Origin: a virus
Strand: one strand, 5' to 3'
DNA length: 29,315 nt
Virus genome (UHGV): UHGV-0059448
Below, in pieces: positions 310 to 25,835 of the stretch. Both the position numbers and the translations under genes were made by a program. The notes beneath the pieces were generated by a model. It was given only the letters and a program-made list of their open reading frames with translations. It was not told the origin of the DNA and searched no databases. How positions within the stretch are numbered: position 1 is the stretch's first letter; every line of letters begins with the position of its first letter.

Positions 310-1578
310 TCAGCTCGGGCTACTGTCAGCACCACCACCTTGTTGTGCGGCTTTCAGTTTCTGGTTGAACACCGAACTTTCTGGCATTTCGAGACGCAGG
401 TCTATCCATCGCCCGGCGGGAATATCCATCGGCTCACCTGCGACGATCATAGCGGTTTCACTGTCAAAGCGACGTTTAAAAACCGACACGATAATGGTTC
501 CGCCCTGAGTGGATTGCGTCTCCACAAAACACAGGGGGTTGCCATTTGAATCCTGTGGGATTTCAATAGTCCAGCCGTCAGCGTGTAGCCCGACAGCGCC
601 ACGTATTTCATATACGCCAGTAGCAATTTTTTCCGCTGTAACGCCTTCCGCCTCCATATTGGTCGCGGCACAGCCAGAAAGTGAAAAATCTTCGAGAAAA
701 CCAGCAGGCATGCCTCTGTGATCATTGGTAAGTCGCACAACAGGTGAGGCTTTTTTTATAAACCCGTTTGCATCAACAGTGGTTGTCAGATTGTCCAGCA
801 ACAGACGGGTTGTTGAAACCCCCGCAGTGCCGTATCCGGACATTACACGGATGCCCCTGGCAAAATAATGCACGCTCATGAGAAACCACGTATCGTTTGC
901 TCCCACCCATAATGTGGGCGCACTTTGTGGAATTTCATAGAATTCACCCGTCATTGGCAATATGTTCTGTAGGGTTGCAAGACTGAATCCCCTCATTTTT
1001 GCCACGACGTTATCAATCACAGATTCACTGGTCGAATTATATTCGGATACAGGAAATCCTTTTTTCAAACCAAGCCCTTCACGTGCGCTGGCCTGGGTAG
1101 TACCGCCAGTACCGCCCTGCTTTACAGACAATGCTGTGGTCAGCCCTTCCAGACTGGTGATGTCTTTATTTACCCCTTTTTTTGCCATGCTGCCAATGGA
1201 GGGGATGCTCATGCTTACACCGTTGATGGTGACCGTGATCATCTGGTTGGCTGTAGTGCTGGCGAACGCCTCCCATGCCCCAATGTTCTCATCGTACTCG
1301 TTAATGAGCTGGGAAATGCTCTGAGCCAGCCCGTCAACCGAGATATTGTCTGATACCAGAATGCCGTACTTCTTGCCGCTCAGCGCCGGTGATGCAGCAG
1401 GCGTTACCGTCATTGACGTGGCGCTATTCACGGATGAAATCTGAAACAGCTGCACCGGGTTAGACATCACGATAATCGTCTGGCCAGCGCGGACCTGGCT
1501 GGCGGGAGCTGTCCAGTTTGTGCCGGAGCCGGTTGCGGTATTTCCGTTAATAGAGATAGTTCCGGTGCTATAAATCAT
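310..1578 (-). CDS. tail fiber protein (side tail fiber-like)
   Basis: 422-aa ORF, ATG at 1578 with AGGAG 5 nt upstream; Gly/Thr/Ser-rich N-terminus (MIYSTGTISINGNTATGSG...) typical of lambdoid tail fiber proteins; position distal to J as for lambda stf. Confidence 0.7.
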   Translation of the reverse strand: MIYSTGTISINGNTATGSGTNWTAPASQVRAGQTIIVMSNPVQLFQISSVNSATSMTVTPAASPALSGKKYGILVSDNISVDGLAQSISQLINEYDENIGAWEAFASTTANQMITVTINGVSMSIPSIGSMAKKGVNKDITSLEGLTTALSVKQGGTGGTTQASAREGLGLKKGFPVSEYNSTSESVIDNVVAKMRGFSLATLQNILPMTGEFYEIPQSAPTLWVGANDTWFLMSVHYFARGIRVMSGYGTAGVSTTRLLLDNLTTTVDANGFIKKASPVVRLTNDHRGMPAGFLEDFSLSGCAATNMEAEGVTAEKIATGVYEIRGAVGLHADGWTIEIPQDSNGNPLCFVETQSTQGGTIIVSVFKRRFDSETAMIVAGEPMDIPAGRWIDLRLEMPESSVFNQKLKAAQQGGGADSSPS

Positions 1579-2083
1579 AACAACTCCTAAATTTAGACAA
1601 CATGAAGCCCGGAGAGGTATATAACCCTCACCAGAAATAATTTCTGAATTGGTTTTTAATACATGTTGGGCAACGCCAGTGTTGGCATAGCTATAGTTGT
1701 ATCAAATGCCATTGACCACCCACCCAAATAATAATTGCCGACTACTTTATTCCTTTCTGCTCTGACATTCCCACCTGTCATTACAATTCCTTTATACCTA
1801 ATATTTCCGTAACCACCAACGTGTCGACAGTTAGCCCCGGTATAAACAATCTGGCAAAATTCATCACCAATATTCAGGTTCGCATTGGCGATATTTATTG
1901 TCCCATCAAAAATGAATGGCTTCGTGCAAGTAAGAAGACGTTTGCGTTGACGATTGGTTTATTCAATCCATCAACTAAAATACCATGTAAACGAATTGCC
2001 ATAACATTTCCCACTTTATTTTACTTACTCAACACAACAAGTATATTAAAATTGAACCTTGTCAACAACACAAAGGAGTCCCA

Positions 2084-2317
2084 ATGAAACTCGCTCTAAT
2101 TATGCTGCCATTATGTCTGTCCCTCACTGCATGTGGTAATGGTTTAAATACCGGTAAACCAAATTCCGGTGTCATTCCAAAACCTTTGGATCGAGATGGT
2201 AACGGTTCTTTAATTTATGATACCGAAAACCTTCCAATGACGGGGCAGTGGTGTCACGAGATTGATCACGAATACCGACGAATCGGTAGCCCTTCTAACT
2301 GTGTTATAGACTACTAA
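2084..2317 (+). CDS. small lipoprotein (77 aa), divergently transcribed moron; possible Cor-like superinfection exclusion protein
   Basis: ATG at 2084 with AAAGGAG SD 5 nt upstream; signal peptide MKLALIMLPLCLSLTAC with lipobox LTAC; opposite strand to all flanking tail genes; AT-rich surroundings; hairpin terminator directly after stop. Confidence 0.7.
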   Translation: MKLALIMLPLCLSLTACGNGLNTGKPNSGVIPKPLDRDGNGSLIYDTENLPMTGQWCHEIDHEYRRIGSPSNCVIDY

Positions 2318-2320
2318 ATA

Positions 2321-2350
2321 TTAACCCCTCAAAAGAGGGGTTAATATTTT
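2321..2350. terminator. bidirectional rho-independent terminator between lipoprotein gene and J
   Basis: Perfect 10-bp inverted repeat TTAACCCCTC-AAAA-GAGGGGTTAA followed by TATTTT on the plus strand and by a T-rich run on the minus strand; sits between the convergent stops of the lipoprotein gene (2317) and J (2349). Confidence 0.7.
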
Positions 2351-5300
2351 AACCTGTGAATGAACCAGATCCGTGTGATACTATGATAGTAGGCGAAGAA
2401 ATTGACGCACCACTGTTATTTTGAGCGGACACTTTAATACGCACTGTTACGTTTGGACCTGTTACAACCGCAGAATGCATGATAAGTCTCTCCATGTCTT
2501 GCACGGATGAACCACTCTCATTGCCGTTAATATTGATTAGTCCTGCACCATTACCTTTAACGTTTGCTATAACACAGACGTGTCTTGCGTGCCCAGAACT
2601 GGATGAATCCGTATAAGTTATTACCTTTTCTAAAAGACCGTCACTAGACCGACTAACGTTAGTTCCGGTGTGCATATTTGCAATGTCCCCGATAAAACTT
2701 TGGGCTTCCACAGTCCCTTTGAATTTACCGCTTGTTGCTTGGATCTCACCAGTAAAGCTACCGCCACTAGCATATACTACACCTCTGACGGTCACATTGT
2801 TGAATTCAGCATCTCCAGCTTTATTCAACTTCCAACCAGCAGAACCAGCTGCATAGTTGTTGGACTGGATATAGTTGCCGATTTTGGCGTTCTCAATGGT
2901 GCCGTCCTGGATGAAGCTGGCCCGGATGAATGTCTGCCCGTTCTGGATCACGAACGGCAAAGCTACGCTATTTCCGGCTGCCGTGGTGACGGCGAAGCGG
3001 TCAGCCAGAAAAATTACCTGTGATTGCATGCCGCCAGGTGTATTTTGTACCCCTATGCCCATACCTGCAGCGTAATACTGGCCGTTAGCGGCAACGCCAA
3101 CTTTGATGTTGTACATCGCGTTTAGGTTGCCGTTTACATCTGCCACCGCCTGCGCCGTCTGGTTGATGGCTGCAGTCTGCCCGTTCACTGTCACCGTCAG
3201 AGAGTTAATCTTCGTGGCGGATGCCTGGGTGAAATCAGCCAGTGTCTCCGTCAGGTCGGTCGCGTTCGAAACATTCCCACCCGCAGACGCATCAAGCGTA
3301 ACCAATGCCCGGGCAACCGCCTGGCTGGTATCGGCAATGGTGGTGTCTATCCGGTCAATTTTTGCGACATTGCCGTTATTGGTGGCAGTCTGGGAACGGC
3401 GGGAAGTCACCTGCGCCAGGCTGTTCTGGATCACGGCAATTGATGAGTTTTTGACACCGCCGGTCATGCCGTCCATCGACACAGAAATCTCGTCGATCTT
3501 CACTTCGGCCTGAGCCAGCCCGTCAGCGTTCTCCAGGATGTCTTTCGCCTGCTGCTCGAGTTCGTCGGCATGGTTTTTAATTTCGTCAGCCATGCCAGCA
3601 ATTTTTTCATTGCTGTCCACCGCGTTCTCGATCAGGTCTTTGAACGTATCGGAGTCTTTAATTTCCTCCAGAATCACATCTGTGATATCGGAAACATCGA
3701 TGCTGGCCTGTCCTCGCACCCATTCTGTGTACCCTGATTCGTTGCCGCTGCGGTCCACCAGCTGCGCGCGGTACCAGAAAATCTGCCCAGCCTTAAGGCC
3801 CATCTGCTGATATTTGCGCTGCGGGTAAGGCACATCGGCCAGCAGCATGGCATCGTCTTCAGTACCGGTCAGGCTGTACTGAATTTCCGTCTTCAGCGTG
3901 TCGTCGGTATTCGCCTGGAATCCCCAGTTCAGCTCGATACCGAACACCACGTTTTCAGAGGCGATAAAGCCAACCGGCTTCGGTGGATTGCCCACTTTAC
4001 CCGTCAGCGTTTTCTCTTCTGAATAGCCCCATCCGGATGAAATTTCTGCGGCATTGATTGCGCGCACCCGCACCAGGTAGCGCCCGGCATAAATCCCCGG
4101 GACGTCGAATGACGTGGTGGAGGTGCGCGGCACGTTAACCCAGTTCCCGTCATTGCGACGCCACTGTGCCTCATACGCGATAGCATTTTTCGCCTGGTCC
4201 CAGCTGACGCGCATGGTCTCAACGCTGATATTCTGCTGAACGACAGAAAACGAACTGATCGCGATATTAGCTGGCGGGGACTGATTACCGGGCGGAATTA
4301 CACTTATTGGCCGCTGGTCGATAATGGCACCGGTATCGATACGCGCATATTTATCCGGATCGTGCAAAGCGCCAGCAATCGAATACGTTCCGTCATTATT
4401 ATCCGTAACGCTGATAACGCGATATTGCTGCGCGTAAAGCTCTTCAGACTCGACAATCCACACCGATTCCACTGCAGGTGTTTCGCTGTATGCCGTTGTC
4501 ACAGTGACGGCCCGCCCGTTTACGCTCTGTATCGTCCTGCTCTGCGATGCGCCGGACGGAAGGTTAACCATCAGACGGCTTCCGGGAGCGGCTGGCGAAT
4601 CACGATCAAGCGTGATAACGCGACCGTTAACCGCGCTGATGCGCCCTCCCATCACTTTTCCGGAAAGCAGCTCATCGGCAACCGCGATGATATAACCAGG
4701 CTGTGGGATCTTACCGTCAAGACCAACATCGAACGACACGATGCGATCCTTGTTATTGGTCAGGATACCCCAACGTCCTTTGCGGTTTGCCTCTGACTGC
4801 CGGGTACAACCAATGGCTGTCATTTCGAGCTGATTTGTGCCAAAGCGAGCAACGAGATCCTGCTCAAATACAGGCTCCATCGCATCCGCGTAGGCATTAC
4901 CCGGATCGGACCAGGAAACCAGTGCCGTGGTATAGCGGGTTTTGGTGGTGCTGCCCGAATAGGTAAAGCGCCCATTAACCACGTTTGCACGCGTGTAGCT
5001 GTAATCCACATCGCGGGGCATATCCGCCAGCGCAACGATTTGATCGCCACCCCAGTACGTCATGCCCCGGAATATCGCCGCAAAATCACGTAACACGGTA
5101 TAGGCGTCATTCCTCTCCTGCACGTACACGTTACAGGTATAGCGAGGCTCAGTGCCGCTACCGCCTTTACCATCAGGAACCGGCTGATCGCAATATTGCG
5201 CGACCTGATAAAGCGTCCATTTATCAATATTGGCCGCCGTCAGGCGATTGCCCAGCCCAAAGCGGTCGCTCACCACCAGATCGTAAAAAATCCAGGCTGG

Positions 5301-6143
5301 ATTATCCGTCCACGCCCACTTAAACGCCCCTGTCCATGTGCCGCTGTAGGTGCGGGTCTCCGGGTCATACGTATCCGGCACGCGGATAACGCGCCCGCGC
5401 GGTTCACAGGAAATTTGCGGGATGGAGCCGTTAAACTGGCTTGAGTCGAATTCGATGTACAGCAGCGCGGTATTTGGATAACGCAGTTTGGCGTCAATAA
5501 CCTCTGTGTAGCTCTGCAGCGTCATCGTGTCGCCAATTTTCGCGCTGTTGGCATCCGCCGTAAGCTTACGCAGGCGCACCGTCCATGTACTGCCTGCCTG
5601 CGGTAAGTCGATACGGTGGCTGCGTTCGTAGCCTGACGTGGTTTTCCCGGTGACGCTGGTATTAAGCACGGTCTGCCAGGTACCGCCATCTGTCTGCAGA
5701 TCGATAGCGTAATTAATCGAATAGCCGACCAGATCGCCGTCGTCCTCCTGTTTAAACAGTGATGGCCATTTGAGGCGCAGACGAATGGCTGACAGCTGGG
5801 TGTTGGTAAAGGTATGCGTCCAGGCCGTAGCGCTTGACACTTCGGTGCCCACGCTGATTTCATTTTCTGTGCCGGGGATACCCTGAATATATTTTTGTGC
5901 CTGAGTCCCCGGACGAAATTCCCACGCCACGCCACTGAAGTTTTGCGATCCGTCTGCATTCTCCAGTGGCGTGCCATCGAGATAGATATCCTTCGCCGTC
6001 AACTGCCCTGCAAATTCGCCCTCTCCCAGTGCAACAAGAATTTTGGCTTTCGCTACGGACTGGAGATCGTCTGGTTGTTCAGTCGGGGTGCGTGAACTGG
6101 AGCTGCCGCCCTTGCGGCCTCTAATCGGAGTAGATGTAGCCAT
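2349..6143 (-). CDS. J: tail tip host specificity protein J
   Basis: 1264-aa ORF, ATG at 6143; blocks such as YPNTAL, YCDQPVPDG, GTEPR recalled from lambda J; last gene of tail operon after I. Confidence 0.95.
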   Translation of the reverse strand: MATSTPIRGRKGGSSSSRTPTEQPDDLQSVAKAKILVALGEGEFAGQLTAKDIYLDGTPLENADGSQNFSGVAWEFRPGTQAQKYIQGIPGTENEISVGTEVSSATAWTHTFTNTQLSAIRLRLKWPSLFKQEDDGDLVGYSINYAIDLQTDGGTWQTVLNTSVTGKTTSGYERSHRIDLPQAGSTWTVRLRKLTADANSAKIGDTMTLQSYTEVIDAKLRYPNTALLYIEFDSSQFNGSIPQISCEPRGRVIRVPDTYDPETRTYSGTWTGAFKWAWTDNPAWIFYDLVVSDRFGLGNRLTAANIDKWTLYQVAQYCDQPVPDGKGGSGTEPRYTCNVYVQERNDAYTVLRDFAAIFRGMTYWGGDQIVALADMPRDVDYSYTRANVVNGRFTYSGSTTKTRYTTALVSWSDPGNAYADAMEPVFEQDLVARFGTNQLEMTAIGCTRQSEANRKGRWGILTNNKDRIVSFDVGLDGKIPQPGYIIAVADELLSGKVMGGRISAVNGRVITLDRDSPAAPGSRLMVNLPSGASQSRTIQSVNGRAVTVTTAYSETPAVESVWIVESEELYAQQYRVISVTDNNDGTYSIAGALHDPDKYARIDTGAIIDQRPISVIPPGNQSPPANIAISSFSVVQQNISVETMRVSWDQAKNAIAYEAQWRRNDGNWVNVPRTSTTSFDVPGIYAGRYLVRVRAINAAEISSGWGYSEEKTLTGKVGNPPKPVGFIASENVVFGIELNWGFQANTDDTLKTEIQYSLTGTEDDAMLLADVPYPQRKYQQMGLKAGQIFWYRAQLVDRSGNESGYTEWVRGQASIDVSDITDVILEEIKDSDTFKDLIENAVDSNEKIAGMADEIKNHADELEQQAKDILENADGLAQAEVKIDEISVSMDGMTGGVKNSSIAVIQNSLAQVTSRRSQTATNNGNVAKIDRIDTTIADTSQAVARALVTLDASAGGNVSNATDLTETLADFTQASATKINSLTVTVNGQTAAINQTAQAVADVNGNLNAMYNIKVGVAANGQYYAAGMGIGVQNTPGGMQSQVIFLADRFAVTTAAGNSVALPFVIQNGQTFIRASFIQDGTIENAKIGNYIQSNNYAAGSAGWKLNKAGDAEFNNVTVRGVVYASGGSFTGEIQATSGKFKGTVEAQSFIGDIANMHTGTNVSRSSDGLLEKVITYTDSSSSGHARHVCVIANVKGNGAGLININGNESGSSVQDMERLIMHSAVVTGPNVTVRIKVSAQNNSGASISSPTIIVSHGSGSFTG

Positions 6144-6196: not shown

Positions 6197-6784
6197 CTAC
6201 TGCTGATCTTCGACATAAATTCCGGCAGAAATAATTGCCCCGCCGATTCTCCGGCGGCCGTACAGGAGCGGAACCGGGTAACCCTGTGCGGCGGTATTTG
6301 TGACTCCGCCGAACGCGTATGAGGCGCGGTTATCTGAGCTCTGTTTGCTGGCCAGCCCTGTAGCCTGAGGGGATATCATCTGAACTACCCCCCCCAGCGT
6401 TATGGACGCACCAGCAGCAAACATCATATTGCTGGCAGCTATACTCAGACCTGGCATCCAGATCGATGCAATCACTAATACTGCGCCCAGGATAGTTTGA
6501 ATCAAACCGGCTTTTTTACTCCCGATGATTACCGGGACAATGCGGATAACATCGCCGGTAACCGGGAAACCGAGGTCATCCACACCGATGTTTTTTTTAC
6601 CCTTAAATACGGAGTATGTGAGCCCACGGCGCTGGCTGGAAATCATAAACTGCTCAAAGCCCGGAATAGTCTTTGCTAGCGCCACTCCCGCCTCGCTTAC
6701 ACGGGAAATCAGGCGGTGGTGAATTTTACCGAATGTTTTCCCGAGCACGCCGCCAAGCTCAATCCGGGTCATTACTTCCTGCAT
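6197..6784 (-). CDS. I: tail assembly protein I
   Basis: 195-aa ORF with ATG at 6784 (alternative ATG at 6772 overlapping K stop); hydrophobic Gly/Ala-rich middle and C-terminal LLYGRRRIGG resemble lambda I; position between K and J. Confidence 0.9.
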   Translation of the reverse strand: MQEVMTRIELGGVLGKTFGKIHHRLISRVSEAGVALAKTIPGFEQFMISSQRRGLTYSVFKGKKNIGVDDLGFPVTGDVIRIVPVIIGSKKAGLIQTILGAVLVIASIWMPGLSIAASNMMFAAGASITLGGVVQMISPQATGLASKQSSDNRASYAFGGVTNTAAQGYPVPLLYGRRRIGGAIISAGIYVEDQQ

Positions 6785-7503
6785 GTTTCACCTGCCATTA
6801 CATCTTTATAACGAACGATTTTCATCGTGCGCTCCTGCCAGTATCCGCCATAAGGAACACGTTGACTCAGATGCCCATAAAGATGGTGCAGCAGCATGTT
6901 ACCCTCCAGTAAAATCCCGGCATGATTCCACTTATCGGCCTGCACCTGCATGATGACGAGGTCTCCTTCCTGAGGCGGGCCATCAAACTCCCTGAATCCG
7001 CACTCGTACCAGCACTCCTGATAGAAATTGTCCGGGTAGTCGTTTTCCCACCAGGGATAATCTACCCGGTAATCGTGGAGCTCGATACCGTGGGTCTGCC
7101 GGAAATAGCTCATTACCAGACCCCAGCAATCGAAGTGGCCAAGCACGAACGGGCGCTCCAGCAGCGGCAGTTCCCCGCGCGGCTGAATAGTGCGTAAATC
7201 CCCCTCCGGCCAGCTCACAATATGCCAGGGCAGCAGCGTTGCATCACACTGCGCCTTATCCAGCTCGCTGGCCTGCGTCGTCGCATCAGGATGGCTGTGA
7301 ACAATGGCCACCACCGTCCCCCAGTCTTCTGCCGCTGCGTAATCTTCGGGGGACAGGTGAAAATGTTCAGTCGGCTCTGCTGCGAGATTACGACAGGGAA
7401 AATAGCGCTCAACCCGGCTTTTCTGTGCCACCACGCCGCAGCACTCTCGCGGATATTCCGCTGCAGCGTGTGCCATGATGGCATCAATGGTTTTCTGACG
7501 CAT
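6772..7503 (-). CDS. K: tail assembly protein K (JAB/MPN plus NlpC/P60-like)
   Basis: ORF-track start 7542 is a TTG; ATG at 7503 (MRQKTIDAIMAHA...) matches the recalled lambda K N-terminus and sits 1 nt after the L stop; HSHP metal motif present. Confidence 0.9.
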   Translation of the reverse strand: MRQKTIDAIMAHAAAEYPRECCGVVAQKSRVERYFPCRNLAAEPTEHFHLSPEDYAAAEDWGTVVAIVHSHPDATTQASELDKAQCDATLLPWHIVSWPEGDLRTIQPRGELPLLERPFVLGHFDCWGLVMSYFRQTHGIELHDYRVDYPWWENDYPDNFYQECWYECGFREFDGPPQEGDLVIMQVQADKWNHAGILLEGNMLLHHLYGHLSQRVPYGGYWQERTMKIVRYKDVMAGETCRK

Positions 7504-7504
7504 A

Positions 7505-8260
7505 TCAGCTCCTGATAAGAGATGTACCGGGGAAACCGCCAAACGGCAGCTCGTTGCTGTCTCCGTGCCGGAGCTTGCAGGCCGTCAGCGTGCCGTTGCA
7601 GACATCCAGCGATGGATCGTCAACCGGATTATTGTTTTTGTCGAAATAGCGCGTTCCGGCATAGTCGCAGCCGTCGCCGGTCCGGTACTTGTTCCGGATG
7701 CACCAGCTGCATAACGAATGCAGCTGCCGCGTGGGTATCATCTGGCCCTGTAAATCCATCGGACTGGAAAGCGTAAATTCAACAGATTCATCCGTCTCGG
7801 TGCTTCTGGCATCGATATAAAAGACCTTCAGCTTTTCCTGTGACGGGTCTGCAGTGGGATTGCCCTGCGGAAAATTTCTGGCGTCCAGATACTGTGCCAG
7901 CGTGTCGTGGATACTCACTTTCGCCTGCAGCAGATCGTCATACGCCAGACAGAGCGCTGAGATCGAGCTGTCCAGGTTCGCCACACTCAGTTTTGGCTGT
8001 GGACTGGTACCGTCCGTAGTCGCTTCAATACCCTCAACCTGACACGGCCAGGCTTTATACTCCTCCCCCTGCCACCAGATGGACTTCGCCGGAAGTTTAT
8101 TCTCATCCCCGCCTGCAGCCTCAATCTCTTCCGGGGTATGCGCGATATTATGTGCGTGGAAGCGGAGTACATCTGACATACCGAACGCTGTGCCATCGAC
8201 AGAAAAAAGCCGGACTTCATTGCCCGGCTCGAGTTTTTGATAATCAGCATTAAGACTCAT
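7505..8260 (-). CDS. L: minor tail protein L
   Basis: 251-aa ORF, ATG at 8260 overlapping M stop (ATGA); Cys-rich C-terminus as in lambda L; position between M and K. Confidence 0.95.
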   Translation of the reverse strand: MSLNADYQKLEPGNEVRLFSVDGTAFGMSDVLRFHAHNIAHTPEEIEAAGGDENKLPAKSIWWQGEEYKAWPCQVEGIEATTDGTSPQPKLSVANLDSSISALCLAYDDLLQAKVSIHDTLAQYLDARNFPQGNPTADPSQEKLKVFYIDARSTETDESVEFTLSSPMDLQGQMIPTRQLHSLCSWCIRNKYRTGDGCDYAGTRYFDKNNNPVDDPSLDVCNGTLTACKLRHGDSNELPFGGFPGTSLIRS

Positions 8261-8604
8261 GGTGCAAATGCCTGTTCAAACGTTGCGGTTACGGTTATCA
8301 CTTTTACGTTTTTAACCACCTTTTTGAGCGTGTCAGCCTCGACACGCCACAGCGCGGTATCGCCGAAAGGCGGTGTGAAAATAAACGACTTCACTTTATG
8401 CCGCCGAAGGAAAGCGTGAATTTCATTCGCTGTAGTCGGATCCCCTGAAAAGGAATATTCATAGGTACGAATCTCATCATTCAGGCCGGAGCCGCTCACC
8501 TGTGCGTACCCGTCGCCGAACTGGACCTTCCTGACTGTGTCTTTGCTTCCCTCGGTGGGCTGGCTGGAAACCTTAATGCCCCAGGGGAATGTTTCTATCG
8601 TCAT
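8257..8604 (-). CDS. M: minor tail protein M
   Basis: 115-aa ORF, ATG at 8604; size and position (between H and L) as for lambda M. Confidence 0.9.
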   Translation of the reverse strand: MTIETFPWGIKVSSQPTEGSKDTVRKVQFGDGYAQVSGSGLNDEIRTYEYSFSGDPTTANEIHAFLRRHKVKSFIFTPPFGDTALWRVEADTLKKVVKNVKVITVTATFEQAFAP

Positions 8605-8609
8605 AACTG

Positions 8610-11126
8610 TTACCTGCGATTGGTCGCATTCCAGATAAGCCCACCGGGCTGGATTGCCCTGGCGATACCATCGTTGACAGATTTGTTAATCACCTGCTGA
8701 TACGCCTTACCCAGCCTGTCTCCGTCGTTTTGCTGCTGTGCGTTACCGGAAGCATTCTCGACCGTCACCGGGGCATATACACTGACACCGAAAGGTGCTG
8801 CAGCCGGGCCTGTACCACCGCCCCCGACATACCCACCCGTGGCATACCCTTTCATCATCCGGTAAAGATTGCCGACGCCGATCCGGCTGGTAGCCTCTTT
8901 GGTGAAAACAAATTCACCACGGTGAACGACACCTGCAGGTTCATATTTCCCGCCTGAACCGGTATAACCGCCACCTGCAAATCCCAGCGCGGTTGTCGCT
9001 GAATCCACCAGGCCTACCATCGCCTGTTTCAGCAGGATCTGTGTCAGCATGGAGAGCGTGGAGCGGGTGAAGTCAGCCCAGTCAGCCTTTCCGCGCGTCA
9101 GCATGTCAGCCATATTTTGCCCGATGCCATCAAACGCACTGGTGGCAGCCGACTTCATCTGGCCATAAGCATCTGAAGCAGAATCAACATAATCTGCCCA
9201 TGCGGATTTGGCTCCGGACTGCCAGTCGTCCCGCAGCTTATCCTGCTCGGCGTAATACGCCTGCAGCGCCTGCAGCTCATTCTGATAACCAGCATCGTTC
9301 TCCGAACCACCACCATTTTTCCAGCCCTGAAGAAGCTGGGCCTCTTCATTGCGACGTTGTGCTGCACGACTGCTCATACCAGCACTTTCCGCAAGGGCTC
9401 GGGTTTTCTCGCCGATCTGCGTGACGTATTTTTGGGACGTATCCTGCAGGCGATTAAGCCGCTCCTGCGCCACTATCTGATCGCCGAGCTTCGCATTCAG
9501 CTCCGCACGGGAAAGCACCTCACTTTTACTGGCCAGCAGGGATTTTTCCTCAGCAGAAAGCGTTCGGGTCTTCGCGGCCTCTTCCAGAACCGTAAAGCGG
9601 GACTGCTGACGCCACAGCTCCTGACGCTGCTGGCTGATGGTGTCATTGATGCTCTTATGCTCCTGCAGGGTGCGCAGCTGTGTCTGTAGCTCCAGCGTCT
9701 GGGCACTGGCCGTATCGGTGGCACGGGCACCTGCGGGGGTTCTGATTGCCGGGGTCTTCTTCGGCTTTTTAAGGGTGTCTTCGTACTCTTTTTTCGCGGC
9801 GGCCAGGTTGATGTTGTAGTCAGCCTGGAGGATCCGCCCCTCTTTCAGAGCCTTATTGAGCTCGCTCTGCCTGGCCGTGTATTTCTCAAGGGCAGTTTGG
9901 GTTTTGGCATAGTTGGCCTGAGCCTGCGCGGCATATTTCTGACGATCGGACTCTGCGACCGCTTCACGGGAAGCATTCTCTTCGTTCGCTTTGGCAATAC
10001 CAGCCTGCTGCTGCGCCATATCCAGCGCAAGCCTGGCCGTTTCACGATCATTCCAGAACCGGGCGCGGGCCTCATCATTCACATAATGATCGCCTTTACG
10101 CAGATTCCAGATTTCATCAGCCTTTTTAAACGCGGCCTGGGCTTTTGCCACCATCTCCTGGGCGGTGTCAGGTCTGCCAATATCAAGTGCAGCATCCCAC
10201 ATCGACTTGAAGGCACGCTTCAGGGAATCCGCTGAAGACTCAATCGTCCCCATATTGTCGCGGATGGCCTTGGTCTGATCGTTGAATCCGGCAGTAGCAG
10301 CCTGATTAGCCGCCTGCAGTGCGCCAGCCTCATCACCGGCACGCTGCAGCTGTGCCACATGGGCAATCTGTTCGGCCGTAACGTTGTGGAACTGCTGAGC
10401 CATCGCGATCAGGCCTGATGTAGGGTCAGTAGTGAGCTTGCCGTATGCGGCTGCGACTTTTTCCACCGGCACGCCGGAGGCATCAGTAAATCGCGCCACC
10501 GCCTGGCTCATTTCATCAAAGCGCGAACTCGCGCCCACCCCCGCGTTGATAAGCTCGCTCAGGGCTTCGCTGGTCTGATTGAACGTCAGCCCCGCTGCCT
10601 GGCCGTTTCGTGCCAGCGCCAACATACGATCGGCAGTCAATCCGGCCGTGTTCCCCGACAGTACCAGCGTTTTGTTGAAGTCAGATAGTGTGGATGAGCC
10701 CTGGTACCAGGCATAGAACAGCGCACCCGTTGCGGCGGACAGCGCACCGATGCCGACCATCAACGGTGAGATCGTACCCAGTAAGGCCCGGAATGTTGGT
10801 ATTATCCCGCCAAAGGAGTCCTTAACCTGACCGCCCTGCTGAAGCAGAATCAGCCAGGGGTTCTGCCCACCCGCCAGCTGCGTGGCCACGTCAGTAAACT
10901 GCGCCGGGAGCATACGCATCGCTGCGTTATACTGACCCACTGAAATACCGGCCTTACGCGCGGCGTTCTCCTGGCGGCTGAAGGACTGCTGGATACGTAA
11001 CGCTTCATCGTTTGCCGTATTGCCGGTCTGTTTTAATTCTTTTTTGACGTAGCTGAGCTGCTCGTTGAATTTTGTCGAGTTAACGTCAAGGTTAACGACC
11101 AGATCACCGACTGCCGTCTGGGCCAT
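8610..11126 (-). CDS. H: tail tape measure protein H
   Basis: 838-aa ORF, ATG at 11126 with AGGAGG SD; long Ala/Gln-rich helical protein with Gly-rich C-terminal region; follows G-T as in lambda. Confidence 0.95.
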   Translation of the reverse strand: MAQTAVGDLVVNLDVNSTKFNEQLSYVKKELKQTGNTANDEALRIQQSFSRQENAARKAGISVGQYNAAMRMLPAQFTDVATQLAGGQNPWLILLQQGGQVKDSFGGIIPTFRALLGTISPLMVGIGALSAATGALFYAWYQGSSTLSDFNKTLVLSGNTAGLTADRMLALARNGQAAGLTFNQTSEALSELINAGVGASSRFDEMSQAVARFTDASGVPVEKVAAAYGKLTTDPTSGLIAMAQQFHNVTAEQIAHVAQLQRAGDEAGALQAANQAATAGFNDQTKAIRDNMGTIESSADSLKRAFKSMWDAALDIGRPDTAQEMVAKAQAAFKKADEIWNLRKGDHYVNDEARARFWNDRETARLALDMAQQQAGIAKANEENASREAVAESDRQKYAAQAQANYAKTQTALEKYTARQSELNKALKEGRILQADYNINLAAAKKEYEDTLKKPKKTPAIRTPAGARATDTASAQTLELQTQLRTLQEHKSINDTISQQRQELWRQQSRFTVLEEAAKTRTLSAEEKSLLASKSEVLSRAELNAKLGDQIVAQERLNRLQDTSQKYVTQIGEKTRALAESAGMSSRAAQRRNEEAQLLQGWKNGGGSENDAGYQNELQALQAYYAEQDKLRDDWQSGAKSAWADYVDSASDAYGQMKSAATSAFDGIGQNMADMLTRGKADWADFTRSTLSMLTQILLKQAMVGLVDSATTALGFAGGGYTGSGGKYEPAGVVHRGEFVFTKEATSRIGVGNLYRMMKGYATGGYVGGGGTGPAAAPFGVSVYAPVTVENASGNAQQQNDGDRLGKAYQQVINKSVNDGIARAIQPGGLIWNATNRR

Positions 11127-11855
11127 AGCGCACGCCTCCTGAAATACCTGCAGCCTTCGCCATCAGCGTATCGTCATCCGGATCATCGATGTCGATGGCT
11201 TCCGGTGCAGAGGAAAGAATGCTGAAACTGTCCGGGGTTAACTCCGGATCGGCAAAAAACAGGGTTGAGATGGTGTAGAGCAAGCCGGAGAAATGTGCGT
11301 CCAGCTGCGCATCATGAAAGTAATTGTCCTGGTAGAAGATTTTCCAGTCGCCGTACTCCGTAGAGGACATGCCAGCAAGCATGGCACGCCAGTCCGGGCG
11401 ACCGAACTCACGCGCCAGTTTCATGGCAAATTTCAGCTCACTGGCGAGGACTTTTCCGCAGTAACGGGTTCAGCGGGATCATTACGTTCTTCACCGGATG
11501 AAGTCGGTTCTTCAATGACAGGCGCAATCATCCCGGACAGGAGTTTCACCTTATATTCCGCTTCGGCAACCAGTTCGGTCGGCCATGACTGCATGACCTC
11601 ATCCTGAATCTTTGCCACTTCCGCCGCCGCATTTTCTCCCTGGGAGCCTTTCAGTTCGTGGCCGTGCCAGAGTGACATCGCCACGAGGAACGCCCCACTT
11701 TTTACGGTGAGGGTGATGGCCGCCTGAAAATCGCCAGCTTCAACTGCCTCCAGCTGCTTCAGGTATTCGAGGTATTCAATACGCTGAAGCGCCGAAAGCT
11801 GGAACAATGTGACGCTGCTGCCGTTGCATTCAAGCAGTTCGCTCTTTAGAAACAT
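11104..11855 (-). CDS. T: tail assembly chaperone G-T fusion (programmed -1 frameshift product)
   Basis: The T reading frame (ORF 11104..11424) is -1 relative to G and stays open across the 3' end of G; putative slip site G GAA AAG at 11457..11451 (lambda uses G GGA AAG). Exact slip position is inferred. Confidence 0.7.
11433..11855 (-). CDS. G: tail assembly chaperone G
   Basis: 140-aa ORF, ATG at 11855 with GGAG SD; acidic C-terminus; position between V and T/H as in lambda. Confidence 0.9.
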   Translation of the reverse strand: MFLKSELLECNGSSVTLFQLSALQRIEYLEYLKQLEAVEAGDFQAAITLTVKSGAFLVAMSLWHGHELKGSQGENAAAEVAKIQDEVMQSWPTELVAEAEYKVKLLSGMIAPVIEEPTSSGEERNDPAEPVTAEKSSPVS

Positions 11856-11891
11856 AATTACTCCGGGGGAACGGGGCTCGCGCCCCGGTTA

Positions 11892-12629
11892 TCAGGAAAC
11901 AGTGACTTTGCAGATCGCCACAAAGTTACCGTCATTGCTCATAACGATGATTTCGACGGTGCCTGCCGCCACGCCGGTGACCGTCAGTGTGTTACCGTTA
12001 GCCGTAACTGTGGCTTTGGCCCGGTCAGCTGACGATACGCGGAAGGATTTATCTGACGCACTGGCCGGAAGAACAGATACAACCAGTTGCACAGTTTTAC
12101 CGACCGCAACAGCTGCAGTGGATTTATCCAGGCTGATCCCCGTGACAGCAATCGGCGCGGCACCACTGTCTTCTGCCAGTGATGGTTTGCCGTTGTTGGT
12201 GATTTTGGCCGTCCGGGTCATGACCTCTTTGGACGTAATGGTTTTACCGAGGCTGCTCACCCAGCCCTTAAACACATCGACAACACCATTTGGGTATTTG
12301 ATTTTATATCCCCTCACGGTGCCCTCATCGAACCAGATCACAAGGTCCTGCTGACCGGAATCTCCCGGCATCCACGCGAGCGTCAGGTTGGTTTCACCGG
12401 CTGATTTCTGCCCCTGCATGGTTGATGTCCAGTCAGCATTCTCATCATCGATGTAGGTATCATCCTCAGATTCGGCGGTCAGTTCGCCGGGCTGCAGGTC
12501 TTTAATCTTTGCCAGGCGCAGCCAGTCAACGTCTGAAAGCGGATTGGCGTATGGATCTCCGGTTCCGGTGTAAACCCAGAGGGTGGTACCAGCACCTTTT
12601 GTTGGTGTCAGCGGGTTTGGTGTGGCCAT
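11892..12629 (-). CDS. V: major tail protein V (with C-terminal Ig-like domain)
   Basis: 245-aa ORF; N-terminus [10 protein letters not shown]...[13 protein letters not shown] and C-terminal Big_2-like segment closely resemble lambda V as recalled. Confidence 0.95.
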
Positions 12630-12636
12630 AGGGTCC

Positions 12637-13035
12637 TCACATGTCGTAAGTAATGGAATATTTCAGGTCCGCAGAACTCCACAGCGCCATATCGTCATCG
12701 CGCTGGTAGTCATAGCCCTGCTGAACCATTGTGGTGATAAGGGATTCAAGCCCCGGAACCTCTGCGAGAACCGGATACACTCGCGTCTCCATCCAGTCAT
12801 CCAGCTCAGAATCAGGTACCTGAGCCTCAAGAAAGACTTCGATATGCAGAATGGCCTGCCAGCTGTCGGCGTCCAGTTCTTCCCCGGTGTATTCCGCATC
12901 TGTCAGGTAAACGGCAACAGCGGGAAAATCACCCTCTTCGAGCACTGCAGGTCTGCCGTCAAAATAAATGGCGTCAGTACCAATCGCGCTCTCCAGCGCG
13001 TCAATAATCACCTTGCGAATATCGCTGTGTTTCAT
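12637..13035 (-). CDS. U: tail terminator protein U
   Basis: 132-aa ORF; FDGRPAV...FPAVAVYLT...EYTGEELD motifs as in lambda U; ATG overlaps Z stop. Confidence 0.95.
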
Positions 13036-13586
13036 CGTGTCAGAATTAACCTGAGTTGGTTGGTAAGGGATGCCCGGAGTTCTTTGGGCATATCTGACTC
13101 CATAAGCTTTGGCAGTTCTTCTTTAAACGCCGTAGTTAATGGAGCTGCCAGCGGGATGCTGACCACTTCAATGGGGTAACGGGGTTTTGACGTCCGCCTC
13201 ATGACATGCCAGCGGCCATTTTTAAGCTGCTGGATAAAACCGCCCGGAAAACGGAACGGCCCTATACGCAGAACGCTGTTGGCCCCTTTCTTGTCACGTT
13301 TTCTGCGGGAAAGTCGCACGCTTGCGGTACCGAGTTTAATAGCCGGTAAATTGCCCCGGTTTACACGGATAAGCGCGCGAGGTTTATTGACCGTGGCACG
13401 CTTCACCCTGGCGCGTTGCTTTACCAGTTTTCGCGGTACGCGCGTATCTTTTGATACGACTGCCACGCTGCGGCTGACGGCCCGGTTTGCCACGCGGTTA
13501 ACGGCCTGCGCCGATGCCCGCGGAACAGCCGTTTTGCTGATGCTGTTAAGGTTTTCTATGGCCTGTTCAAGGCCTTTTATGGACAT
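13032..13586 (-). CDS. Z: tail completion protein Z
   Basis: 184-aa ORF; MSIKGLEQAIENL... and FIQQLKNGRWHVM motifs as in lambda Z. Confidence 0.95.
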   Translation of the reverse strand: MSIKGLEQAIENLNSISKTAVPRASAQAVNRVANRAVSRSVAVVSKDTRVPRKLVKQRARVKRATVNKPRALIRVNRGNLPAIKLGTASVRLSRRKRDKKGANSVLRIGPFRFPGGFIQQLKNGRWHVMRRTSKPRYPIEVVSIPLAAPLTTAFKEELPKLMESDMPKELRASLTNQLRLILTR

Positions 13587-13595
13587 ATGCGCTCC

Positions 13596-13949
13596 TTAAC
13601 GGCGACGCGAAGATGCAGGTGGAGAGCCGTTACCCAGACAGATATGACAGGAGCCACAGTCATCCGGACCAATACGTTCAACCCAGAATTGCCGACCGTT
13701 AATCGTCAGCGTGTCCATACGCTGCAGCTGCCTGACAGTGGCGGTTTCCACAAACAGGGTCGGGCTGGTTCCTTCAACACGAATCCCGGCACCGGCATAT
13801 CCGATATTTTCTGGATCATCGAATACACCGACCAGGGTGGCACCTGACAAAGCGCCTGACATCACCTTTGCCTCTGTGCCCATCACACCACGGATAGCGC
13901 TATCAGCTCGCGACATGGCCTCGTCAAAGAGATTATCGAAATCAGCCAT
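13596..13949 (-). CDS. FII: head-tail connector protein FII
   Basis: 117-aa ORF beginning MADFDNLFDEA..., with VFDDPENIGYAGAGIRVEG as in lambda FII. Confidence 0.95.
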   Translation of the reverse strand: MADFDNLFDEAMSRADSAIRGVMGTEAKVMSGALSGATLVGVFDDPENIGYAGAGIRVEGTSPTLFVETATVRQLQRMDTLTINGRQFWVERIGPDDCGSCHICLGNGSPPASSRRR

Positions 13950-13959
13950 GTGGCCCCCT

Positions 13960-14394
13960 TCAGACTTCGAAAGCCAGCCCCTTTGCGATCAAGTCGTCGG
14001 CATCCTGTTCAGATACGCGGATAATCACACCAGGCTCTACGATAGATACCGGCTCGTTACGCGTGGCATGCAGAGCGTCAATATGCAGGGTGGCCAGCGT
14101 TTCTACTGATACCAGGTCACCCGTTGTGGCCGATTCCGTTTTTACTTTTGCCACGTTAGCAACATTGTTGTCGGTGCTGTCGGTGCTGTCGGTGCTGTCG
14201 GTGCTGTCGGTGCTGTCGGAAGCATTCTGCACGCCGTTTTCACCGTCAACTGACCCGGCATTGCCATCCAGTTCCTCTTCAAGCTCAGCAATACGCATCG
14301 TCAGTTCCTGAATGGTGCCGCTGGTACTGACCTCGCGGTTAAGCTGGGTCCCAAGTTCATTCAGGCGGGCGACCAGCTTTTCTTTTTCTGTCAT
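13960..14394 (-). CDS. FI: DNA packaging protein FI
   Basis: ATG at 14394 (MTEKEKLVARLNELGTQLNREV...) with GGAG SD, preferred over the upstream start at 14430; C-terminal LHIDALHATRNEPVSIVEPG resembles lambda FI; contains an in-frame (STD)n repeat. Confidence 0.85.
   Translation of the reverse strand: MTEKEKLVARLNELGTQLNREVSTSGTIQELTMRIAELEEELDGNAGSVDGENGVQNASDSTDSTDSTDSTDSTDNNVANVAKVKTESATTGDLVSVETLATLHIDALHATRNEPVSIVEPGVIIRVSEQDADDLIAKGLAFEV
14170..14214. repeat. 9-bp tandem repeat GTCGGTGCT x5 (plus degenerate flanking copies) inside FI, encoding (Ser-Thr-Asp)n
   Basis: Five perfect head-to-tail copies at 14170..14214 with partial copies at 14164..14169 and 14215..14220; in frame on the minus strand (AGCACCGAC). 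Confidence 0.9.
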
Positions 14395-14439
14395 GGGAAA
14401 TACTCCAGAAAGGTGGCCCGACAGGGCCACTGGGGGAAG

Positions 14440-15465
14440 TTATGCCAGTTTGACGGAGACGAATGCGTCAGGGTCTGGCAGCAGCATCAGCGGAGCTGAC
14501 TGAATCATGGTGAATTCGCGCGCCGGATCCCCCGACTGCACCCAGTTTTTCGGGTAGCGTGTCGAGGCATTGATACCTTCGCGCTGGGCATCAGCATCAA
14601 GAATGCAGCCATAGGTACGCAGGCCACGAGCCTGGGTATTCCCCAGCACCATTGTCAGGTCCGGCAGATAATTCTTTTTGACGTCGTTTTCGACGTACTG
14701 GCCGGAGTACACCACGATGGCCACATCGCCAAACATCCCCTTGTATGAAACAGCCATACCCAGGTCTTTCACGGCAGTTTCCAGCTCAGAGTTAGAACCA
14801 CGACGCGTATCCAGCTTCTTCTCAACAGCCTTGAAGGAACGGAACAGCGCCCAGCCTTTCGGATCGAACACAATGATGTTGACCACACCGCTGGCGTTGA
14901 GCGCGTAGGCTTCAATGTCATCGGTCGGGTCATACGTTTCTTTGTCGCGGGTTGACCATGCAGCCGCACCGGCCTGGACAATGTTGTTACCAGCGCTGCG
15001 GCCCATATCGACTTCAACAGGCTCGAACGCTTCCCCGGTCATGGTGTATTTACCGCTGAGCACCGCCGAAACAGCCTGTTTCTCTTCGACCTGAGCAATC
15101 GCCAGCTCTTCATCCTTCATGTTCTGAAGGATAATGCGGCGACGGCGATAGACCGGGTCAGCGAGATTCTGCGGATCCTCATCCGGCAGGCGGCGGAGAG
15201 TCATCAGTGGGTTAACTTCGTGTTTCGGCTTCACATAACCCGGCGTGAATTCAGAAGTGCTGCCGCCCCGGGAGCGGATCACTTTGCCGGAGACAATCGG
15301 CGAGACGTAAAGCGCCATATTGACCAGGCCAGGAATTTGCGACAGGTAAACCTTCTCTGTACTGAAGGGATAGGTTTCGCGGAAAAAGATACGCAGGAAA
15401 AGCGGATCGAATTTGAGTTTCTTCTCATTGACCGCCAGCAGTTGGGCAGTGGTGTAAACGGACAT
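14440..15465 (-). CDS. E: major capsid protein E
   Basis: 341-aa ORF nearly collinear with lambda E as recalled (MS.YTTAQLLA...KFDPLFLR...YLSQIPGLVNMALYVSPIVSG...). Confidence 0.97.
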   Translation of the reverse strand: MSVYTTAQLLAVNEKKLKFDPLFLRIFFRETYPFSTEKVYLSQIPGLVNMALYVSPIVSGKVIRSRGGSTSEFTPGYVKPKHEVNPLMTLRRLPDEDPQNLADPVYRRRRIILQNMKDEELAIAQVEEKQAVSAVLSGKYTMTGEAFEPVEVDMGRSAGNNIVQAGAAAWSTRDKETYDPTDDIEAYALNASGVVNIIVFDPKGWALFRSFKAVEKKLDTRRGSNSELETAVKDLGMAVSYKGMFGDVAIVVYSGQYVENDVKKNYLPDLTMVLGNTQARGLRTYGCILDADAQREGINASTRYPKNWVQSGDPAREFTMIQSAPLMLLPDPDAFVSVKLA

Positions 15466-15478
15466 AGATTTTTCCCGT

Positions 15479-15503
15479 AAAAAAAGCCGCGCAAGCGGCT
15501 TTT
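15479..15503 (-). terminator. intrinsic terminator-like hairpin between D and E
   Basis: Minus-strand RNA AGCCGC-UUGC-GCGGCU followed by UUUUUUU; lies 30 nt after the D stop and about 15 nt before the E start. Confidence 0.55.
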
Positions 15504-15532
15504 ATGAATGATGATGGTTGTAGAAATGCGGA

Positions 15533-15865
15533 TTAAACGATGCTGATTGCAGTACCGGCGAACGCGTTACGTTTAATGTTGTCGTCGGTGACGGCAGATG
15601 GCCAGAGGACATCTTCAATACGGAAAGAGCCAGATTTGTAATATGCCAGTTCCGCGCTGTTCTGGTCTGCGGTTACAGCCAGGATGCCCATTGCCGCGCC
15701 AGCATGAGCACCATCCCAGACGGTCAGCTTGCCGGAAGTGGCATCCAGCATCAGGGGCGTCATCGCCGGTACTGCTTTCGTCAGTTCACCAGGTGCAAAA
15801 CCGGTATGCGCCGGATCACTGTTCCCGAGGGGCTGATTGTGCGTAAATTGTTCAGTGTTAGACAT
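15533..15865 (-). CDS. D: head decoration protein D
   Basis: 110-aa ORF; [14 protein letters not shown]...AMTPLMLD...FAGTAISIV as in lambda D. Confidence 0.95.
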
Positions 15866-15874
15866 GTTGACCTC

Positions 15875-16282
15875 TTAAACAGGCGTATTTAACAAATCGT
15901 CACCCGCTTCGGCAGAAGCGCTACCTGCCGTTATGGTGCCGGGTGCGGTTTCCATCAGACGATCCAGCGCGGTATCCGTACGCGCCTGAGCACTCAGAGG
16001 AGCCGCGGCAAGGATGCGCTGGGCACTTTCCACCGTCATCCCGGGCGTTTCCGCCAGCGCGCGCGCCTGTGATTCACGCCCTTTCGCCTCTTCACAGTTC
16101 AGGATCCCCATAATGCGACCGTTTTCGGCTGCGACCGCCGCTGCCACCTGGCTGCTGATATCAACAGTTGCGCCCGCTGCAGGGTCAGTAACGACCGCAG
16201 CAGGCACGTCAACGGTGGTCACGGTCTGGTCAGCAGATGCTGCTGGTTGAGTGGTATCTGCGGATGCAGTAGTACCTTTCAT
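15875..16282 (-). CDS. Nu3: capsid scaffolding protein Nu3 (nested in-frame in the 3' part of C)
   Basis: Internal ATG at 16282 preceded by GAGGAGGAAGC Shine-Dalgarno inside the C frame; product begins MKGTTASADTT... and ends with the C C-terminus, as for lambda Nu3. Confidence 0.75.
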   Translation of the reverse strand: MKGTTASADTTQPAASADQTVTTVDVPAAVVTDPAAGATVDISSQVAAAVAAENGRIMGILNCEEAKGRESQARALAETPGMTVESAQRILAAAPLSAQARTDTALDRLMETAPGTITAGSASAEAGDDLLNTPV

Positions 16283-17212
16283 GCTTCCTCCTCGGGAAAT
16301 CATCGTTCGTTTGTTAATTGCATCGCGCATAACGTTCAGCGCATCCATGTTGTTGACCAGCTGCTCCGCCAGGCCGTTGTCAACTGATTCCTGGCCTGAA
16401 AAAACAGCTGCTTCAGTATCAAGAACGGCCTGAACCGACATGCCGGTATAACCCGCCACCTTTTCAGCGAACATCTGCCGGGTAGCGTCGATACGCGCCT
16501 GAAAATCTGCGCGTACCTCTTTGGGTAATTTCTCGTAGGGGTTCCCGTCCACCTTGTGATCGCCGCTGTAAATCAGCGTGACCTCAACGCCGCTGGTTTT
16601 AAGGGCGGCGCCGTAATTGCTGTGGGCCATCATGACCCCGATGGATCCCGTTCTGGCCGTCTGGGTCACAAGCCGACGTGATGCCGCACTGGCAATCAGC
16701 TGGCCAGCGCTGCAGTTCATATCGTTGGCTAACGCCCAGATGGGTTTGATATCCCGCATGCGGGCGATGATGTCCGCACAGTCAAAGGCACCCGCCACCA
16801 TTCCACCTGGCGTATCCATATCCAGAAGAATGCCGTCTACACCCGGATCGCTGATTGCCTGCTGGAGGCGGGCGATGATGCCGTTGTACCCCGTCATCCC
16901 CGAATACGGCTGGAGTGAGCGGGTTTTACTGACCAGCGTCCCGGAAACAGGCAGCACCGCGATACCATCAGTAACCTGGTAGCTTCGCGCTGGTTTTGGG
17001 CCCATGTCCTCATCATCACCAAAGAGAGCCAGCGGTTCAGCCATCTGCTCTGCACCTAGCGTCACGCCCGACACGGTGTCGGTCAGACGGGTGATACCTA
17101 ACTGACCAGCGAGAGCACAAAAGAAAACCCGCGCATAGGCGGGTTCAAGTAAAAGCGGCTCATTGAAGGCCATACTGGCAATGTGCGGGAGATTACGCAG
17201 CTCTGGCGTCAT
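15875..17212 (-). CDS. C: prohead protease C (ClpP/S49-like)
   Basis: ATG at 17212 ([19 protein letters not shown]...) with GAGGAGGGG SD, preferred over the upstream ATG at 17227; DMDTPGGMVAGAFD motif; overlaps the 3' end of B. Confidence 0.95.
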   Translation of the reverse strand: MTPELRNLPHIASMAFNEPLLLEPAYARVFFCALAGQLGITRLTDTVSGVTLGAEQMAEPLALFGDDEDMGPKPARSYQVTDGIAVLPVSGTLVSKTRSLQPYSGMTGYNGIIARLQQAISDPGVDGILLDMDTPGGMVAGAFDCADIIARMRDIKPIWALANDMNCSAGQLIASAASRRLVTQTARTGSIGVMMAHSNYGAALKTSGVEVTLIYSGDHKVDGNPYEKLPKEVRADFQARIDATRQMFAEKVAGYTGMSVQAVLDTEAAVFSGQESVDNGLAEQLVNNMDALNVMRDAINKRTMISRGGSMKGTTASADTTQPAASADQTVTTVDVPAAVVTDPAAGATVDISSQVAAAVAAENGRIMGILNCEEAKGRESQARALAETPGMTVESAQRILAAAPLSAQARTDTALDRLMETAPGTITAGSASAEAGDDLLNTPV

Positions 17213-25776: not shown

Positions 25777-25807
25777 GTTGCCAGTTTTCAATGAAGATAA
25801 TGCGGGC

Positions 25808-25835
25808 AAAAAAAAGCCTGCTCGGACGAACAGGC
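25808..25835 (-). terminator. rho-independent terminator, candidate tR' of the late leader transcript
   Basis: Minus-strand RNA GCCUGUUC-GUCC-GAGCAGGC followed by UUUUUUUU; about 140 nt downstream of the candidate late promoter. Confidence 0.6.

Follow-up and report, generated by a model that had tools for sequence, protein, structure and literature searches.

The window, that is, the whole analyzed stretch of 29,315 nt of virus genome UHGV-0059448, encodes on its minus strand the central tail fibre (tip attachment) protein J (2349..6143; 1264 aa; Pfam families FNIII-A_GpJ, Phage_Tail_Tip, and Phage-tail_3) and a side tail fibre (310..1578; 422 aa; PHROG 1591 and PF25670). Between these two genes, a lipoprotein gene of 77 codons and a stop codon was located on the plus strand (2084..2317), as evidenced by ORF translation, a match with PHROG 12984, and the alignment of its family. 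A preliminary description of this DNA had placed the gene on the strand opposite to the late operon, which was correct; it had also called it divergently transcribed, which holds relative to the tail-fibre gene only, the gene being convergent with J.

The lipoprotein begins with MKLALIMLPLCLSLTAC; its signal peptide occupied aa 1–16, and the lipobox was LTAC. The lipidated cysteine, Cys17, was encoded at 2132–2134 and followed by Gly at position +2. A strong Shine–Dalgarno sequence (AAGGAG, 2073..2078, plus strand) lay 5 nt upstream of the ATG, so that the protein, its lipobox, and its ribosome-binding site were all found where they had been described earlier. In Escherichia coli, the residue at position +2 governs the outer-membrane sorting of lipoproteins (the Lol rule); from the lipobox and Gly at +2, the protein is predicted to be located in the outer membrane. 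The mature part contained two further cysteines, Cys57 and Cys73, both conserved in the family, which probably form a disulfide bond in the mature domain.

PHROG 12984, annotated as 'lipoprotein', matched the protein over positions 1–77 of 77 with E = 1.3e-56. In the alignment of 21 lipoprotein sequences of the family, C17, C57, C73, and the motifs PNSGV, GQWC, and R..G...NC were invariant, and the signal peptides of homologues were variable, with the lipobox at the end in 21 of 21 members. The dN/dS ratio of the mature part was 0.02–0.06 in comparison with seven homologues (dS 0.46–2.4); the mature lipoprotein is under strong purifying selection. The PHROG match, the invariant cysteines and motifs, and the low dN/dS show that the ORF is real and not a chance ORF. 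No family matching the lipoprotein was found in Pfam, NCBIfam, or PADLOC, and a sequence search of the PDB returned no chain at E ≤ 10. AlphaFold2 modeling with the 21-sequence alignment gave a mean pLDDT of only 58 and no confident fold, so the binding mode of the lipoprotein is without structural support.

The Shine–Dalgarno stretch, AAAGGAGTCC, was kept in all nine aligned relatives. Upstream of it, a consensus scan and a conserved block revealed a candidate sigma-70 promoter on the plus strand (2020..2047), with TTTACT as the −35 element (2020–2025), a spacer of 16 nt, and TATATT as the −10 element (2042–2047). The −10-like TAAAAT proposed previously is present at 2047–2052, but it overlaps TATATT and has no suitably spaced −35 element, so TATATT with TTTACT 16 nt upstream is the better supported candidate. 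Five of the nine aligned phage and prophage relatives read TTGACT-16-TATATT, while the window and E. coli Nissle 1917 read TTTACT, the weaker −35 element. Promoter-like matches were not in excess in the region (4 found vs. 3.2 expected in shuffled sequence). That a host-type promoter is retained even by virulent phages points to transcription that is early or constitutive and does not depend on the late operon. Several other candidate signals were rejected: a minus-strand 'terminator' over the lipoprotein start codon (2092–2076) is attributed to chance (2 found vs. 0.8 expected), and neither the short direct repeats near the promoter nor a 10-nt imperfect inverted repeat (1973–1982/2017–2026) had support as operators.

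Between the convergent lipoprotein and J genes, a bidirectional hairpin resembling an intrinsic terminator was found (2316..2349). Its arms (2316–2330 and 2335–2349) are 15 nt each, 100% complementary, and separated by a 4-nt loop; the left arm begins one base before the end of the lipoprotein stop codon, and the right arm overlaps the J stop codon. The calculated folding energy was −20.9 kcal/mol on the plus strand (z = −6.6) and −22.0 kcal/mol on the minus strand (z = −6.4), and 0 of 200 shuffled sequences folded equally well. The perfect bidirectional hairpin reported before was thus recovered, with a fully complementary 15-bp stem and z of about −6.5. A GC-rich hairpin with A-rich/T-rich flanks occupied the same place in 23 of 23 relatives, the stem sequences being different.

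Extent and origin of the low-GC segment

The G+C content of positions 1579–2350 was 38.9%, compared with 54.9% in the rest of J and 54.8% in the structural genes. The AT-rich island noted previously between J and the tail-fibre gene is confirmed in composition but had been drawn too small: the low-GC stretch passes the J stop codon and extends inside J to ~2820, so that the island covers ~1580–2820, includes the last ~155 codons of J, and has a G+C content of 39–41% in a prophage of 55%. These codons (2349..2820, minus strand) are the exchangeable receptor-binding tip, as delimited by divergence from a sister Cor-type prophage. In this sister, the E. coli prophage ECONIH4, J was 95% identical over residues 1–1113 and then divergent, and it was followed by two small ORFs, cor, and a similar tail-fibre gene. 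The DNA similarity of the window and ECONIH4 ends at 1579 and restarts at 2821, the point at which the low-GC stretch also ends. Hence, a segment of ~1580–2820 was replaced, comprising the last ~155 codons of J, the terminator, the lipoprotein gene, and debris.

Positions 1916–2944 of the window, reaching ~600 nt into J, had 88.6% DNA identity to the virulent phage 9g (Nonagvirus). In the annotation of 9g, the matching stretch contains J, a 'lipoprotein' (gp69), the start of the tail-fibre gene gp70, and two stem-loops; the 9g genome paper does not mention a receptor, the lipoprotein, or the annotated loops. The J tip and the lipoprotein gene move together as one mobile cassette, and the unit to be considered is the receptor-binding tip with the lipoprotein, not the intergenic island alone. 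The head and tail genes of the window (6200–21600) had 87–90% DNA identity to mEp237, HK225, and N15, lambdoid phages that normally possess an FhuA-type tip and cor. The cassette has replaced the FhuA-type tip and cor of such a phi80/N15/HK225-like lambdoid backbone.

Two gene remnants were found in the segment. An Stf-like tail-fibre N-terminus (MAIRLHGILVDGLNKPIVNANV...) is encoded on the minus strand (1895..2002) and stops after 35 aa; it had a weak PF08400 match, and from 1916 on, the DNA corresponds to the beginning of 9g gp70. This stub is most readily interpreted as a recombination scar brought in with the cassette. A C-terminal fragment of a DUF6453 protein (1656..1958, minus strand; PF20051, E = 7e-22, profile positions 223–289 of 291) represents the C-terminal quarter of the protein without a start codon and is a pseudogene remnant; in the 95%-identical prophage of E. 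coli SZQ1, PGAP labels the stretch an incomplete pseudogene. Both remnants look like scars of the cassette exchange. The idea that the DUF6453 fragment derives from the Cor-type module that was displaced found no support, the two extra ORFs of the sister prophage having no Pfam match. The cassette was uncommon in complete E. coli genomes (46 of 5426).

J tip linkage and the lipoprotein family

The last 150 aa of J in the window were 93% identical to those of 9g (tip identity 89–93%). The last 200 aa had 62% identity to J of the LamB-dependent phage mEp010 and 40% to J of the LamB-dependent Bas21 (tip identity 37–40%). In the AlphaFold2 model of the tip, the last ~105 residues had high confidence; the top PDB match of the model was the lambda gpJ–LamB complex (8xcj_F, E = 1.4e-5), at a modest TM score of 0.45.

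Among 31 IMG/VR loci with a homologue of the lipoprotein, 29 had its gene convergent with J at ~30–60 bp from the J end, and the same layout was found in 9g, Bas21, mEp010, E. coli O68:H12, and Nissle 1917. The linked J tips (last 150 aa) were homologous to that of the window, with 32–97% identity across the IMG/VR loci, and the J bodies beside the lipoprotein homologues belonged to at least four unrelated types. Neither the lipoprotein gene nor a tip of this type was found in the lambda locus or in Cor-type loci. The identity of the lipoprotein did not track that of the tip: it was 96% for Bas21 at a tip identity of 37–40% and 99% for another relative (L012) at 38%. A conserved lipoprotein beside diverse tips is expected where the lipoprotein has to match a host protein that is conserved, with the tip free to diversify.

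The homologue with an experimentally characterized function is Lpp010 (gp116) of phage mEp010. Similarity to exclusion lipoproteins, the absence of which the preliminary description had named as an argument against an exclusion function, was found here: the BLASTP identity of the window lipoprotein to Lpp010 was 51% overall (E = 2e-30) and ~71% over the last 52 residues. The mEp010_116 product was a 100% match to the clade-2 family sequence used in the comparison. Both proteins possess a lipobox, two extra cysteines, and the motifs PNSGVIP, TGQWC, and RRIGSPSNC, and both loci have the same layout of J, hairpin terminator, convergent lipoprotein gene, and tail fibre, with homologous tips (62%). 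The differences lie in the tether after the lipidated cysteine (GNGLNTGK in the window vs. AVDKEAALHNL in Lpp010), the length (77 vs. 82 aa), and the carrier, which is a lambdoid phi80/N15-like prophage here and an mEpimmI phage in the case of Lpp010.

Expressed from a plasmid, Lpp010, a 'type-C' lipoprotein, excluded the LamB-dependent phages mEp010, mEp044, and mEp554 as well as lambda (Negrete-Mendez et al., PMC11893012). The exclusion of lambda was unexpected, and according to the authors, no lipoprotein from a lambdoid phage had previously been reported to exclude lambda (PMC11893012). Phages mEp010, mEp013, mEp044, and mEp554 did not infect a lamB knockout; mEp013 escaped Lpp010 despite its LamB dependence (PMC11893012), and the block is therefore sensitive to particulars of the tip of the phage.

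In the BASEL collection, the locus downstream of gpJ in small siphoviruses was described as a receptor-binding module with a cognate superinfection-exclusion protein, the alleles of which match the terminal receptor (Maffei et al., PMC8594841). The receptor of Seuratvirus Bas21–24 is LamB (BASEL S5 Table, PMC8594841), and the lipoprotein family was present in all four of them, the protein of Seuratvirus GottfriedDienst (Bas21) being 96% identical to that of the window. The family was absent from the three LptD-dependent Queuovirinae of BASEL (MZ501057, MZ501068, and MZ501110), with none among 44 phage records matched. All eight family carriers with a known receptor use LamB. Across the Seuratvirus/Nonagvirus group (Bas21–24, Seurat, CAjan, and 9g), the lipoproteins were 90–96% identical to ours, and the promoter, Shine–Dalgarno sequence, and terminator were common to these phages and the window at ~88% DNA identity. 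These phages are virulent, and the gene would act in their lytic growth, whereas the prophage gene of the window could act in the lysogen.

Among 5.8 billion proteins, 22 clusters matching the lipoprotein were found, and a profile search of 1.84 billion representative proteins yielded three real clusters (at 50% identity). The latter gave no bridge to Cor or Llp; two giant repetitive proteins among its hits look like repeat or low-complexity noise. The scan of species-representative genomes for relatives produced 36 pattern matches, none of which was confirmed. The family has a narrow range and does not extend beyond phages of enterobacteria.

Several members of the family were unusual. In two 28-kb viral contigs without a megablast match among known phages (L036, 3020–3238; L037, 3607–3825), a 72-aa homologue with 52% identity had an ordinary signal peptide without a lipobox (MKKLIAVVAILLCTNAFA / NTNEPNSGVIP...) and no J-like neighbour; possibly, the domain exists here in a soluble, periplasmic form. 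The copy in L019 (2522–2746) was frameshifted after residue 55 and looks decayed. In L034 and L035, ATA replaced the ATG and C73 was changed to R, so that these copies look decayed or altered. The O68:H12-type allele (L004/L020) also had ATA at the start position, and PGAP calls an over-long ORF of 165 aa there.

Compared with known exclusion lipoproteins, the protein resembles the outer-membrane lipoprotein Cor (phi80, N15, T1, and HK022; NF047972) in its length of 77 aa, its two further cysteines, and its predicted location. In sister prophages whose J is 95% identical (residues 1–1113), the place between J and the tail fibre is taken by cor, which bears out the earlier argument from position; the kind of function, receptor inactivation, would be the same. 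However, Cor is encoded on the J strand and acts on FhuA, while the gene in the window lies on the opposite strand. Alignment to Cor, which had been recommended as a check, failed: we found no NF047972 match at E ≤ 1 (the sister-prophage Cor scored 140.9 bits) and no BLASTP alignment at E ≤ 100. Thus, of the earlier proposal of a receptor-blocking exclusion lipoprotein 'such as Cor' that would bring about lysogenic conversion, the exclusion part is supported by the 51% identity to Lpp010, but the protein is not a Cor homologue and its predicted target is LamB. Inactivation of FhuA by this lipoprotein is unlikely because the FhuA-type end of J and the genes downstream of it were replaced.

Llp of T5 and Rtp45 of Rtp are likewise small phage lipoproteins encoded beside the gene of the receptor-binding protein. 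They bind the periplasmic side of their receptors (FhuA and LptDE, respectively) and alter the surface loops, and their structures have been solved (PMC9586334, PMC12685063). Rtp45 also has an internal disulfide, comparable to the predicted Cys57–Cys73 bond of the window lipoprotein. Their targets are different, and neither of them had a sequence match to the window lipoprotein.

Proposed action on LamB and alternative explanations

We consider the gene likely to encode a superinfection-exclusion lipoprotein of the Lpp010/PHROG 12984 family that disables LamB as a phage receptor; the prediction of LamB as the target follows from homology and from the use of LamB by every characterized carrier. 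A sigma-70-type promoter of its own would drive the gene in the direction opposite to that of the late operon, and the transcript would end at the bidirectional hairpin before running antisense into J. The gene is presumed to be expressed in lysogens. The precursor would be exported, lipidated on Cys17, and cleaved, and Gly at +2, in place of Asp, would direct it to the outer membrane. There, the short variable tether would hold the conserved domain of ~50 residues against the receptor used by the neighbouring J tip, most likely the maltoporin LamB, which would then be unable to support infection. A lysogen would resist LamB-dependent phages, i.e., lambda, Seuratvirus, mEp010-like phages, and the prophage's own kin, and after induction, the progeny would be spared loss on cell debris.

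LamB has neither a plug domain nor a lateral gate, and therefore the mode of blocking may differ from that of Llp and Rtp45. We also put forward, as a speculation of low probability, that the lipoprotein disables the plug-less LamB from the periplasm in a way unlike Llp on FhuA or Rtp45 on LptDE, possibly allowing phage binding and preventing genome entry, which would turn lysogens into traps.

The identical gene in a probiotic strain is relevant here. In E. coli Nissle 1917, 341 bp (NZ_CP022686.1, 430195–430535) were 100% identical to positions 2010–2350 of the window, which include the promoter, the lipoprotein gene, and the terminator, and the encoded protein (WP_021567253.1; locus tag CIW80_RS02285) was identical to ours. 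The Nissle copy lies in a prophage next to aspS/yecD, and the J tip there was 97% identical to that of the window. Strain Nissle 1917 resists lambda though its LamB is intact; lambda is nonetheless inactivated slowly when it binds to cells of this strain, and the authors ascribe this binding, which maltose enhances, to LamB (PMC5987069). If the lipoprotein gene is expressed in this strain, such slow inactivation is an ill fit with a complete block of adsorption. The Nissle copy is a lead, and the trap reading, if true, could explain part of the resistance of this strain to lambda and the inactivation of lambda by it.

As a rival to a block at the receptor itself, the same family and the same target can be combined with a block after adsorption: LamB is bound, DNA ejection or envelope passage fails, and the lysogen is a sink. 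We regard this as rather improbable. The Nissle data speak for it insofar as a strain with the identical gene, a 97% identical J tip, and an intact receptor was resistant, lambda DNA was found in the cell pellet, and the titre fell 100- to 1000-fold in a maltose-enhanced manner (PMC5987069). However, these experiments were not about the lipoprotein gene, the authors credit part of the resistance to a prophage repressor (PMC5987069), and the loss of titre took 24 h, hence adsorption may be strongly slowed. It can further be argued that LamB, being plug-less, cannot relay the signal of a periplasmic ligand to the surface loops as FhuA does with Llp; against this, Rtp45 changes the surface loops of LptD though LptD is not a TonB-dependent transporter (PMC12685063). 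A further alternative is an exclusion lipoprotein in an allele fitted to some receptor that is not LamB. In its favour, the J tip is unlike the tips of phages for which the receptor has been proven: it was only 40% identical to that of Bas21 and 62% to that of mEp010, and the closest one, that of 9g (89–93%), belongs to a phage without a published receptor. We nevertheless judge this very unlikely, given that the part that has to fit the receptor, the lipoprotein, was 96% identical to that of Bas21 despite the tip identity of 37–40%, that LamB was the receptor of 8 of 8 carriers for which it is known, and that the tip model was closest to the LamB-binding domain of lambda.

Least probable, and given hardly any credence by us, is a gene with no part in phage exclusion, either a silent relic or one for a lipoprotein with an unrelated task in lysis or as an accessory factor (such as an Rz1-type o-spanin or a Bor-like virulence factor). 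Decayed copies do occur elsewhere (the L019 frameshift; L034 and L035 with the ATG lost and C73R), no Pfam, NCBIfam, or PADLOC family covers the protein, and an Rz-like spanin in PHROG gave a weak match (E = 0.25). This match was restricted to the signal peptide, however, and no i-spanin partner was found; the gene lies between J and a tail fibre, in the tail module and not in a lysis module. The dN/dS of 0.02–0.06, the close association with the J tip in phages that are otherwise unrelated, some of them virulent, and the demonstrated exclusion phenotype of the homologue Lpp010 also argue against a relic or an unrelated function. The o-spanin and Bor-like readings are rejected because of context and the absence of similarity.

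Under the preferred reading of a LamB-directed exclusion lipoprotein, the prophage is probably a mosaic with its receptor switched to LamB, since a backbone of the FhuA/Cor type carries a cassette of the LamB type; its receptor would be predictable as LamB despite this backbone. The 'hypothetical' label of the protein in RefSeq, including that of Nissle 1917, can become 'probable LamB-directed exclusion lipoprotein'. The novelty is modest: an Lpp010-family gene is carried by a lambdoid prophage, and the exchange with a 9g-like virulent phage is sharply bounded and left scars. In nature, a tip and the exclusion gene matched to it are exchanged together between virulent and temperate phages, and the locus illustrates this cleanly. 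Such exchange is relevant to host-range prediction and to the choice of therapeutic phages, since entire groups of LamB phages would meet resistance in lysogens. The small and strongly conserved family is also a workable system for studying how a periplasmic lipoprotein shuts a plug-less porin.

Other features of the prophage

Positions 1–243 of the window are not common to the closest prophage, that of E. coli SZQ1, in which the match begins at 243. A pair of tail-fibre assembly genes in opposite orientation was found in SZQ1 and in two further related prophages, and other relatives have a recombinase annotated in this region; this arrangement suggests an invertible tail-fibre segment in the prophage lineage. 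In the early/lysis-proximal part of the window, a match to the small RNA family STnc100 (Rfam RF02076) was found on the minus strand (25805–26004) with a score of 82.6 bits against a gathering score of 47.
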